From: Bacteroidota bacterium
GTDB taxonomy: Bacteria > Bacteroidota > Bacteroidia > Bacteroidales > JACABE01
Assembly (NCBI GenBank): GCA_037134755.1
Contig: JBAXLO010000008.1
Span: 14,011-38,010, forward strand
Length of the DNA stretch: 24,000 bases
Reading direction: 5' to 3'
Part shown: piece after piece, positions 1 through 8,365 of the stretch
How positions within the stretch are numbered: the stretch's first letter is position 1
Layout of the letters: each line of letters starts with the position of its first letter
Position numbers and translations under genes: made by a program
Notes under the pieces: model-generated
What the model was told of the DNA's origin: nothing
Seen by the model: only the letters and a program-made list of their open reading frames with translations
The model's database searches: none

Positions 1-1789
1 TAAGAATATCCTCTTCAACCTTATTATAATCTGAGTTATTTGCTATAATTGGTATCGGGTTTGAATCAGGCGCAACATCTATTTGTTCAATTGAATTTGT
101 AGTTATTTCAATTTCTCCAGATATGTTTGATGGTACCTTAAATGTCTCAAATAAAGATTTTGGCAATCCCCCTAGCATTCCATTTCTGAGTTCTGTAGTC
201 GTATCCCCCCATAGCCTTAAAAGTATTCCTCTTTGTGTTGCAGTATTTGGGTCAATTTTTTTATTGCTTTCAGTATAATGAATAATTTTCCACCTTGGAA
301 TCGGTTGACTATCCAGTGTGAACCTAGACTCATTTAAAAGAAATCCTTCTGGATCAGTAACCCACATCGAAAGTACGTGCAAAATAACATTTTTTAAAAA
401 TACTCGTGGTGTCCTTCGTGCAACATCGAGGCTCTGGTATAGGTTCCATAACGCAGTCTCATTGAATGGGAATATGGAAAAATCCTTTTCCTGCTGCGAG
501 ACTATTGCCCATGGATATTCAGGTAATTTAGCAATTGGTATTGCCTCTTCGTATGCTCCTTTGTTAGCCCAATCGCAAATAATTTTTTCATCTAAATTTA
601 TTGCATTTATATACTTTGCTGCAAAATATGAAAGTTGCTTCTTGTTTCCAAGCATGGCTTCTTCTTTAATTAGTATATTATGTGTTACTCGATCTTTAAT
701 ATTATCAGGAATGCTATTCCAATAGAAGCTAGTTGTCGCTCCGCATATGGAACTGATTCTACAAAACTCACCATTTCCTTCTGCTGAGTGGTTTGTTATC
801 AAAACTTCCATCAATGCATTATCTAATCCAGAAAACGATGTAATATCCTCTATAAACAAAGTCAACTTGTTACCTTGCTTTTTCAATATACTTCTTAATG
901 ATGCAAATAAGTTCTTAAAGTCAGCCGATTCAAGATTTAGGCTTCGTTGAATAACTGATGATACTTTAGAGTTGAGATATTCAGCAACCTTGTTTCTTAG
1001 TTCGCTTCCTTCGCCTTCCGTAGCAAATTTCTCAGCTAGTCTAATTGTATTTCCTGCAGCTCCTGCATTTGCAATATCAAGATTCTGTTTAATTTGTTGT
1101 AATGTTATTTTGAAATCCTTGGCTGCAAAGATCTGATCTTCATTTTGATTAATAGTTCCGTCTTCTTTTGTTCCAAGTTTTGCGCAAATTTTACTTAATG
1201 GGCCATTGTCCACAAGTAAAAAGGTATTAATTATATACTCATCAGTTAAGTAGCTTTTGAGCCAATCTCTATATCTTTCGTCTAATAAATCATTTCCCGC
1301 TTCCTTATCTTTATCAATTTCAAGTGTAAAATTAAAATTTATCGTTTTCTTTAATTCTTCCCCAGTAATATTTCCTTTTGCATTTCTGATAATTCTAAGT
1401 TCATTCTCCTTTATTTCTTCAGGGAATAAATCAGCATCTATAATCTGTTTTAATGCATCTTGAAGAGTGTTGTGCGCTCGTGAAATTAATAAAACAACTT
1501 CTTTTTCATTTGCCTGCTTTTGATATTTTTCTTTAAGCCATCTAATTAAGTGAGATTTTCCAGACCCATTACTTCCCTGGATAAGAATGAGTTTATGTTC
1601 TTCAGGACTATCACATATTATTTCCTGGAAAAGCTTATTTTCATTGAGCGAGTCCTCTTTGGATCCAGTTCCCTTTTGTAAATATAAATTCTCAAAAGGA
1701 ATGTGAGTCGCAAGAAAATCAGCGATTGAAGGTGTTGTTGCTTCAGTTTGAATAACTTGACTTAATCTTTTCAGCCTTTGCGCATCCAT
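1..1789 (-). CDS. P-loop NTPase, BrxC/PglY-like or KAP-like Walker A; partial, 3' end beyond the left window edge
   Basis: Not in the supplied ORF track because no stop lies in the window. Hand translation from the ATG at 1789..1787 stays open to base 1 (596 codons): MDAQRLKRLSQVIQTEATTPSIADFLATHIPFENLYLQKG... Walker A is LILIQGSNGSGKSHLIRWL (GSNGSGKS = 1553..1576). A Walker-B-like LTLFIEDIT lies near 838..864. The start is 5 nt after the stop of the upstream gene. Confidence 0.8.
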   Translation of the reverse strand, partial: MDAQRLKRLSQVIQTEATTPSIADFLATHIPFENLYLQKGTGSKEDSLNENKLFQEIICDSPEEHKLILIQGSNGSGKSHLIRWLKEKYQKQANEKEVVLLISRAHNTLQDALKQIIDADLFPEEIKENELRIIRNAKGNITGEELKKTINFNFTLEIDKDKEAGNDLLDERYRDWLKSYLTDEYIINTFLLVDNGPLSKICAKLGTKEDGTINQNEDQIFAAKDFKITLQQIKQNLDIANAGAAGNTIRLAEKFATEGEGSELRNKVAEYLNSKVSSVIQRSLNLESADFKNLFASLRSILKKQGNKLTLFIEDITSFSGLDNALMEVLITNHSAEGNGEFCRISSICGATTSFYWNSIPDNIKDRVTHNILIKEEAMLGNKKQLSYFAAKYINAINLDEKIICDWANKGAYEEAIPIAKLPEYPWAIVSQQEKDFSIFPFNETALWNLYQSLDVARRTPRVFLKNVILHVLSMWVTDPEGFLLNESRFTLDSQPIPRWKIIHYTESNKKIDPNTATQRGILLRLWGDTTTELRNGMLGGLPKSLFETFKVPSNISGEIEITTNSIEQIDVAPDSNPIPIIANNSDYNKVEEDIL

Positions 1790-1794
1790 AAATT

Positions 1795-8000: not shown

Positions 8001-8365
8001 AGGATTTCTGTCTCGCATACAATCCCAGTTCTTGTTTCTCCATCTTTCATAAATTCAATATAATAATCATAGTATTCATAATCTGAGCTAGGTTTCCTGG
8101 AAGTTGTTATTATTTTAACCTTAAAACCCTTATAATTAATAATTGTATTGTCTAAAATGCAGCTTCTTTGAAGTTTATTTGCTTTGTAAATCACTCTGTT
8201 TGGAAGAAATTTGAAGAAATCTCTTAATCTAAAAAGATCATGGAAAACTACTGTAATTTTATCATTAACTAAATCAGCAAATTCTATTTGGCCTAATATA
8301 AAATCTCTTGGGTTTTGTGGATCTTCGTCATAAGCGCACCTTACATACATTCCCTTTTTTAACAT
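5093..8365 (-). CDS. RapA-like Swi2/Snf2 family ATPase/translocase, 1090 aa
   Basis: [10 protein letters not shown]...[16 protein letters not shown] (GLGKT = 7745..7759). DETH box at 7487..7498. [44 protein letters not shown] closely resembles E. coli RapA motifs V-VI. A roughly 390-aa extension after the core has no recognisable motif. Confidence 0.9.
   Translation of the reverse strand: [1090 protein letters not shown]

Follow-up and report, generated by a model that had tools for sequence, protein, structure and literature searches.

DpdE-H-like genes next to dndCDEA in a Bacteroidota bacterium: probable components of a larger, phosphorothioate-marked restriction cassette

Introduction

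The restriction operon dpdD-dpdK belongs to the 7-deazaguanine (Dpd) islands (Thiaville 2016; PMC10164549; PMC12235509) and is reported to restrict unmodified DNA (PMC12707154, PMC12235509). For phosphorothioate, a review of host-dependent restriction names only dndFGH/sspFGH, sspE and pbeABCD as restriction branches (PMC12707154), and of these Pbe consists of an HKD-SF2 helicase, a 66-amino-acid (aa) protein, a CxC ABC ATPase and a DndE paralogue (PMC10853773, PMC6459918). BREX type 3, DISARM, ARMADA and BRIGADE share BrxHII/DpdE-like SNF2 proteins and BrxC-like ATPases (bioRxiv 10.1101/2025.09.15.676423). Here we compare with these systems a stretch of 24,000 nucleotides (nt) from a Bacteroidota bacterium (assembly GCA_037134755.1, contig JBAXLO010000008.1, positions 14,011 to 38,010), referred to below as the window. 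A preliminary description had recognized, within its first 8,365 nt, a module of a RapA-like SNF2 protein, a RecQ-like helicase, a 264-aa protein and a P-loop ATPase, and had named both Dpd and Pbe as candidate relatives. We find that these genes encode relatives of DpdE, DpdF, DpdG and DpdH, and argue that they are probably components of a larger restriction cassette that is paired with dndCDEA and forms with it a phosphorothioate-marked restriction-modification system.

Results

The distal genes of the array encode DpdE-, DpdF-, DpdG- and DpdH-like proteins

The minus strand carries four genes within 1-8365:

1..1789, minus strand: P-loop ATPase, DpdH-like; the first 596 of 1025 aa, the gene running off the left end of the window
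1795..2589, minus strand: DpdG-like protein, 264 aa (NCBIfam DpdG, weak PF28110, tblastn, position)
2592..5084, minus strand: DpdF-like RecQ-family SF2 helicase, 830 aa (NCBIfam and PADLOC DpdF)
5093..8365, minus strand: DpdE-like SNF2 ATPase, 1090 aa (NCBIfam and PADLOC DpdE)

The open reading frame (ORF) listing and its translations bear out the spacings of 8, 2 and 5 nt reported earlier, and Pfam and NCBIfam recover the earlier domain calls: SNF2-rel_dom with a weak RapA_C match, DEAD/Helicase_C of the recQ family, and an AAA/KAP P-loop; the Pfam search assigned no domain to the 264-aa protein. Position 8365 is no natural boundary. From dndC, at the right edge, through the ATPase gene the ORF listing gives a single strand throughout, with gaps of at most 31 nt or overlaps of 4 nt; terminator-like sites in the array number 7 against 7.1 expected, and scans for promoters and terminators gave no signal above shuffled sequences. 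Because all genes share one strand and tight spacing, with no excess of terminators, the four genes are the distal part of a single array, which comprises 14 genes in the window and 15 when the next gene at the left is counted. Plus-strand ORFs at 318-725, 5697-6104 and 10275-10649 (124-135 aa) are nested wholly in minus-strand genes and are most likely spurious.

Flanks were read on the 83.8-kb contig CAZTSV010000007.1 (GCA_964616105.1), which holds an exact match of the 264-aa protein. Other genomes were covered by two scans. The first covered a single genome of each species, used a profile built on the family of a 924-aa protein encoded in the middle of the array, and found 130 loci, of which 80 were analysed (own ORF calls, clustered; 10-kb flank); the second, of metagenomes, was seeded on DpdH-like proteins and found 297 relatives, of which 80 were analysed.

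DpdE, DpdF, DpdG and DpdH are the top matches of the four proteins in both PADLOC and NCBIfam. The alignments are full-length, and all four proteins fall short of the NCBIfam equivalog cutoffs. The DpdE-like protein scores 342.6 bits against NF041062 (cutoff 500; profile positions 78-1045 of 1048), which is below equivalog level, and also matches RapA (230 bits) and DrmD (142 bits) in NCBIfam; in PADLOC the order is DpdE (258.7 bits), BrxHI/BrxHII (147 bits) and DrmD (120 bits). The DpdF-like protein, with intact GGGKS and DEAH motifs, comes near its cutoff and stays under it (NF041063, 505.8 bits, cutoff 550), with 207 bits for recQ and 417.6 bits for PADLOC DpdF. For the DpdG-like protein the NCBIfam match is to NF041064 (32.8 bits, E 4.6e-8, cutoff 80), and a precomputed Pfam match to DpdG (PF28110) is flagged as weak; tblastn aligns its full length with DpdG as encoded in a canonical Dpd locus of Bacillus (E 5e-17), and its gene always lies between those for DpdF and DpdH, in genome and metagenome loci alike. 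The DpdH-like protein matches NF041065 with 220.8 bits as the 596-aa fragment and 256.2 bits as the full-length protein (profile positions 8-896 of 1014; cutoff 450) and is matched by twelve PADLOC DpdH models; its Walker A motif GSNGSGKSH (G72-H80) and Walker B residues E314-D315 are invariant among 11 homologues. Searches of PDB sequences with the DpdH-like and DpdG-like proteins returned nothing significant.

Left of the window the ATPase, which the preliminary description had only in part, is completed to 1025 aa, and a 227-aa gene overlaps the end of its gene. The product is homologous to that of the gene following DpdH in the canonical Bacillus locus (E 2e-7), in Selenomonas (E 3e-11) and in Yersinia (E 9e-6), and the gene is therefore DpdI-like; neither it nor the 264-aa protein has a match in PHROGs. 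The order dpdE-F-G-H-I is colinear with the canonical Bacillus locus (L007). On profile matches and gene order, the four genes plus the 227-aa gene are thus full-length, colinear, sub-threshold homologues of DpdE-F-G-H-I, and the Dpd relationship proposed earlier is right at the level of families. Neighbour-joining trees of DpdH and DpdF leave the deep branches unresolved, and canonical loci are not monophyletic in them; we therefore make no claim about the ancestral lineage.

What the window shares with canonical Dpd is accordingly a set of homologous proteins in the same order and at tight spacing beside a DNA-modification module and, by analogy, presumably their role, the restriction of unmarked DNA. 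It differs in that a NERD-UvrD and AddB-like pair is present and the adjacent modification module is dnd. Could this nevertheless be an ordinary restriction module for 7-deazaguanine, served by dpdABC and que genes at another site in the genome? Such a module would account for the best matches, and some canonical islands do lack genes for preQ0 synthesis and use salvage instead (PMC12235509). We consider it very unlikely: all four proteins are below the equivalog cutoffs, dnd fills the position of the modification module, and dpdA (TGT-like), DndB-like dpdB, dpdC, que, DpdJ (YprA-family), DpdK (PLD nuclease) and DpdD are absent from the window, from ~10 kb on either side and from the 80 genome loci. 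In the metagenome loci, tblastn with DpdJ, DpdK and DpdD of L007 gave matches only in the 7 canonical ones, and no match to a QueC reference was reported. On the sub-threshold scores and the absence of dpdABC and DpdJ/K/D we reject membership of canonical Dpd.

An AddAB-like pair is the constant partner of DpdE-H

The two largest genes in the middle of the array are:

11437..14211, minus strand: AddB/RecC-like protein, 924 aa, with a four-cysteine cluster (AF2 model and Foldseek)
14208..17294, minus strand: NERD nuclease fused to a UvrD/AddA-like SF1 helicase, 1028 aa (Pfam NERD, UvrD-helicase and UvrD_C; NCBIfam AddA)

The 924-aa protein has no match in Pfam, NCBIfam (AddB included), PADLOC or PHROGs. 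Its AlphaFold (AF2) model (mean predicted local distance difference test score, pLDDT, 82) has as its top Foldseek matches in the PDB AddB (4cei_B, E 3e-10, near full length) and RecC (7mr1_C). Four cysteines are invariant in the family (C756, C900, C903 and C909, with a CX2CX5C motif at the C-terminus), an arrangement that resembles the iron-sulfur cluster of AddB and Cas4, and we predict an iron-sulfur protein; a PDB sequence search with the profile gave merely a weak hint of a Cas4 C-terminus (E 0.16). A library of 1.84 billion proteins contains 796 representatives of the family at E <= 1e-3. The 1028-aa protein has AddA as its best NCBIfam match (E 4.9e-40, 137 bits, cutoff 708), and the D/ExK residues of its NERD domain (D44, E58, K60) reach at least 90% conservation across 72 homologues. 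Since the modelled fold is that of AddB/RecC, the four cysteines are kept, AddA is the best match and a NERD nuclease is present at the N-terminus, the pair is, on model and sequence, AddAB-like and not a housekeeping orthologue.

As in AddAB and RecBCD, a UvrD-family motor with a nuclease domain is coupled to an AddB/RecC-fold partner with a four-cysteine cluster. The nuclease of the window, however, is an N-terminal NERD domain in place of the C-terminal RecB-type domain of AddAB/RecBCD; hidden Markov models detect no helicase or nuclease motifs in the AddB-like subunit, and the pair is found on mobile elements together with defence genes. These differences bear on the idea that the array is a housekeeping cluster for DNA repair and transcription, with no part in defence. 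Resemblance to AddA, AddB, RecQ and RapA does exist at the level of families, but scores are far under the orthologue cutoffs (AddA 137 vs 708; RecQ 207 vs 640; RapA 230 vs 576), the cassette occurs sporadically, on integrative and conjugative elements, with defence genes for neighbours. It was not seen as a single-copy core set of a clade at a conserved chromosomal position, and we regard a housekeeping role as extremely unlikely.

Hosts of the genome loci are mostly Bacillota (many Lachnospiraceae, other Clostridia, some Bacilli), and include Paludibacter, Prevotella and Thermosipho. The 924-aa protein is present in 79 of the 80 loci, and its partners are NERD-UvrD (77), DpdE (71), DpdF (68), DpdG (66) and DpdH (66), the core counts being below 80 because of contig ends and the 10-kb flank. 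Core gene order is constant throughout, and in 77/80 loci the NERD-UvrD gene directly precedes the AddB-like gene. A locus of Yersinia enterocolitica (GCA_034647335.1), reached through a DpdH-like homologue, encodes a 910-aa protein (E 2e-85 with the window's 924-aa protein), a 195-aa and a 293-aa protein, DpdE, F, G and H and a 219-aa protein, followed on the other strand by dndBCDE and a cysteine desulfurase; complete genomes of E. coli gave no DNA match to its DpdG-H region. The conserved order of the cassette is NERD-UvrD (AddA-like), the 924-aa AddB-like protein, optional small proteins, and DpdE, F, G, H and I.

Two suggestions of the preliminary description need to be modified in the light of this order. 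The four genes do co-occur in other genomes, as expected of a unit; they are not self-contained, since the NERD-UvrD and 924-aa genes precede DpdE-H colinearly across the 80 loci. By the same token, the six genes between dndA and DpdE had been viewed as an insertion, which is wrong for the two largest of them because they are the most constant partners of DpdE-H. The 214-aa protein in this interval recurs as well, and only the 693-aa UvrD, the 237-aa protein and the Hsp70-like protein (listed below) are specific to the lineage.

Variants of the cassette were also seen. AddB-like proteins of ~1390-1450 aa are encoded in L029, L031, L050, L054, L061, L068 and L069, and database relatives of this length carry a PIN domain (PF13638), which would be an added RNase-type effector. 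In L151, L155 and L174 a MZB (YprA-type) and a NERD-ResIII gene stand upstream of DpdE-I, with dndBCDA downstream, while Selenomonas L005 has a helicase, MZB and NERD-ResIII downstream of DpdI and a Dcm methylase and Vsr upstream. The plasmid loci L095 (Geobacillus zalihae pJS1-2) and L096 (Bacillus cereus) encode a UvrD helicase, a distant 924-aa homologue, a tiny ORF and a 472-aa UvrD helicase: this Dpd-less cassette of four genes is possibly a separate, uncharacterised defence system.

Genes for phosphorothioation adjoin the cassette

The head of the array is dndC-dndD-dndE-dndA, with dndC as the first gene:

19389..20582, minus strand: DndA cysteine desulfurase (PADLOC DndA/SspA ~402 bits; NCBIfam DndA 363 bits)
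20579..20959, minus strand: DndE (PADLOC E 4e-11; NCBIfam E 2.5e-12; Pfam DndE)
20956..23154, minus strand: DndD ABC/SMC-like ATPase (NCBIfam DndD 370.7 bits, cutoff 245.85)
23141..24000, minus strand: DndC, a sulfurtransferase of PAPS-reductase type, C-terminal part (460 aa in full, as read on the contig; PADLOC 221 bits for the fragment, 467.5 bits full-length)

DndD exceeds its curated cutoff; DndC, DndE and DndA are best matches that are sub-threshold or partial, and together the genes make up a dndCDEA module. No dndB was found in the window's array.

Adjacency of dnd genes to the cassette recurs in several forms. Immediately upstream, dndC-D-E-A is found in 17/80 genome loci, 16 of them with the genes on the same strand (the arrangement of the window) and one with the genes on the opposite strand; in further arrangements dnd lies downstream, on the same or on the opposite strand. 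Among AddAB-type metagenome loci with at least 5 kb of sequence beyond DpdH, 23/31 (74%) carry two or more dnd genes downstream, the usual order being DpdH, DpdI, dndB, C, D, E, A and an HNH gene, whereas none of the 7 canonical loci with DpdJ/K/D has dnd. The variant with MZB and NERD-ResIII upstream likewise carries dnd, in L102 dndD-E-A runs straight into DpdE, and genome loci in which dnd is not visible are near-identical to metagenome loci with downstream dnd (for example L044/L045 and L166). The hosts are distant, from Bacillota to Yersinia. Because adjacency is kept through several arrangements and in distant hosts, it argues for functional coupling to dnd, not hitch-hiking.

A dndCDEA order without dndB is that seen with pbeABCD (PMC6459918), and the RecQ-like protein has a weak PbeA match in its helicase C-domain; both points could be taken to mean that the distal genes are a Pbe-type companion, centred on a CxC ABC ATPase. 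Of the two candidate relatives named earlier, this one is wrong. PADLOC Pbe models detect only a helicase fragment and DndD: the PbeA match covers the helicase-C fragment (83 residues, 368-450; E 6.7e-9) with no PLD domain, and PbeC models match DndD alone. An HKD domain is missing from the array, as are a second ABC ATPase, a second DndE-like gene and any equivalent of the ~66-aa PbeB. We reject Pbe membership and give a Pbe-type companion practically no credence.

DndFGH, SspE, SspFGH and PbeABCD are, like the cassette, dnd-adjacent multi-ATPase assemblies, and presumably read phosphorothioate as a self mark (PMC12707154, PMC6459918, PMC8092258). The proteins are unrelated, however. DndH is a giant (~1700 aa) of HerA/FtsK-REase type, SspE is a DUF262-DUF1524 protein and Pbe combines HKD-SF2, CxC ABC ATPase and DndE paralogue, while none of these systems has DpdE-I or AddAB-like proteins; the only match to the kinase-like DndF in the window is a P-loop of 40 residues (E 2e-6), and the window has no DndFGH genes. 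With BREX type 3, DISARM, ARMADA and BRIGADE the array shares an SNF2 helicase and a P-loop ATPase of large size, encoded next to a modification module (bioRxiv 10.1101/2025.09.15.676423), but it lacks their YprA/MZB helicase, PglZ, BrxA/B/L and methyltransferase core, and the mark that we propose is phosphorothioate.

Several loci have additional genes at or near dnd. DndG/DndH-like or DndF/G/H-like genes stand beside the cassette in L012, L013 and L018 (upstream) and in L093 (Halalkalibacter; downstream), and these flanks include a ~1700-aa protein that ends in a HerA/DUF87 domain; two distinct putative phosphorothioate restriction modules may thus coexist in these four loci. A gene for a 270-aa Mrr_cat restriction endonuclease lies between dndA and NERD-UvrD in L049, L053, L074, L077, L080 and L087, and upstream of dndC in L036, and an unannotated gene of ~650 aa lies between dndE and dndA in L049, L063 and L077.

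Lineage-specific proteins and the flanking defence island

The remaining genes of the array are:

8397..10046, minus strand: Hsp70-like ATPase, 549 aa, lineage-specific accessory (Pfam HSP70 E 3.5e-54)
10061..10774, minus strand: 237-aa protein, no family match, lineage-specific (homologues in nearest loci)
10790..11434, minus strand: 214-aa protein, recurrent between the AddB-like gene and DpdE (homologues in Yersinia, L090 and Selenomonas)
17291..19372, minus strand: second UvrD-family helicase, 693 aa, lineage-specific (Pfam UvrD-helicase and UvrD_C)

In most loci the 924-aa gene abuts DpdE, and the window's lineage inserts here a protein of ~200 aa and a variable second protein (Hsp70-like, ~300 aa or ~385 aa). 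The former is represented by the 214-aa protein, which is present in 8/80 genome loci and is homologous to a 195-aa protein of Yersinia (E 2e-16), a 191-aa protein of L090 and a 198-aa protein upstream of DpdE in Selenomonas. It has no match in PHROGs, and its structure model (pLDDT 56, from five sequences only) is unusable. Apart from the window's contig, only L010, L018, L094 and L097 have the Hsp70-like ATPase at this position; over its last ~50 aa the ATPase is similar to the C-terminus of the otherwise unrelated 293-aa protein that Yersinia encodes there (E 4e-6), a similarity that suggests a common docking tail on interchangeable N-terminal domains. Homologues of the 237-aa protein, for which Pfam, NCBIfam, PADLOC and PHROGs give no match, occur only in the nearest loci, L010 and L097. 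The 693-aa UvrD is restricted to the window's contig and L010, L011 and L016, and has an N-terminal region of ~240 residues with no domain match.

Beyond the array, a 975-aa PLD-helicase-DUF3427 protein is encoded ~2 kb right of the window and upstream of dndC (L177:4624-7551); PADLOC scores it, as a type IV methyl-directed restriction enzyme, at 805 bits. Genes for a PDC-S01 candidate (AAA_14/DUF4143) and for a KilA-N protein are nearby, and on the evidence of these neighbours the array sits in a defence island. On the left, after the DpdI-like gene (L001:14626-16268), the gene for a 213-aa S-adenosylmethionine (SAM) methyltransferase (PADLOC mad2-like, E 2e-13) overlaps that for a 341-aa HNH protein. 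Homologues of the latter recur directly after dndA in many metagenome loci (e.g. L098, L119, L143 and L159), and the protein could be a phosphorothioate-associated HNH endonuclease.

Discussion

The reading that we prefer, and hold to be reasonably likely, is that the DpdE-H-like genes work as part of the AddAB-like and DpdE-I-like cassette together with dndCDEA. DndCDEA would write phosphorothioate marks on host DNA. The SNF2 translocase, the RecQ-like helicase, DpdG and the DpdH/DpdI ATPase would load on DNA and check for the mark; unmarked phage or plasmid DNA would then be passed to the AddAB-like helicase-nuclease, or would license it, and the NERD domain would degrade the DNA. The AddAB-like pair would occupy the place held in canonical Dpd by the DpdJ helicase and the DpdK PLD nuclease. 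Homology, gene order, the AddB-like fold, the intact motifs and the repeated adjacency to dnd are observations; function in defence, dependence on phosphorothioate, the division of labour and the identity of the mark-reading protein are all put forward by analogy with dpdD-K.

A number of observations weigh against this scheme. No phosphorothioate-reading domain was identified in any component, and a search of the nuclease-like C-terminus of the 924-aa protein for conserved catalytic residues found only the cysteines, in a fast alignment that is modest in this region. Adjacency by itself can be misleading, given that defence genes gather in islands, and a type IV enzyme does lie upstream of dndC. 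Most genome loci have genes of conjugative elements and WYL regulators upstream, with no dnd on that side, the one that the 10-kb flank covered, and 8 of the 31 flank-sufficient metagenome loci of AddAB type have no downstream dnd; on account of such loci, the cassette may work without a linked mark or may use one that is encoded elsewhere. Finally, when plasmids were searched with the 924-aa protein, only distant homologues appeared, on Bacillus/Geobacillus plasmids that carry such a pair but no Dpd-like genes, which makes the pair a separable module.

Taken to its conclusion, this line of argument makes the AddAB-like and DpdE-I-like cassette a self-contained system, independent of any mark, that may sense DNA ends, replication intermediates or phage proteins and that shares nothing with dnd except mobile islands. 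The loci lacking downstream dnd, the upstream integrase, relaxase, TraG, Toprim and WYL-regulator genes of many genome loci, and the occurrence of the pair alone on plasmids all fit such a system, and dnd modification is often functionally decoupled from neighbouring restriction modules (Rakesh et al., PMC10853773). We nevertheless judge it rather unlikely. Adjacency amounts to 74% on the single side examined, against 0/7 in canonical Dpd, and persists across distant hosts and no fewer than three arrangements; genome loci without visible dnd are near-identical to metagenome loci that have it downstream; and in canonical Dpd the homologous module does operate with a DNA mark.

The preliminary description had considered that the module might be novel in itself. 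For the proteins this does not hold, as they are of known families; the cassette and its coupling to dnd are, by comparison, probably undescribed. The review cited above lists other phosphorothioate branches only. A large Dpd census required dpdAB (PMC12235509) and could not see these loci for that reason. A reappraisal of Dnd, a BREX survey and a YprA survey do not mention the pairing of DpdE-H with dnd, and full-text searches found no literature linking DpdE-H to dnd or phosphorothioate, with most subscription journals outside the searchable text. Taken together, the review's list, the dpdAB-bound census, the silence of the surveys and the empty searches make the pairing appear undescribed.

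The wider proposal, which we advance tentatively as a possibility, is that these loci represent an unrecognised and widespread phosphorothioate-dependent class, in which DpdE-I has been uncoupled from 7-deazaguanine and recoupled to Dnd, with DpdJ/DpdK exchanged for an AddAB-like nuclease. If this is true, the Dpd core would be a modification-agnostic sensing engine, and the class would join DndFGH/SspFGH, SspE and Pbe as a further branch of phosphorothioate restriction, one that Bacillota of human and animal guts commonly carry. It would account for many dnd clusters of gut Bacillota that have no recognised restriction partner, and would give annotation pipelines a reason not to label these loci partial Dpd systems. 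The AddAB-like effector would be a possible target of phages that carry RecBCD/AddAB inhibitors. And if DpdE-I serves both a base mark and a backbone sulfur, comparison of the lineages could reveal which component is the mark reader and which are generic motor or scaffold.

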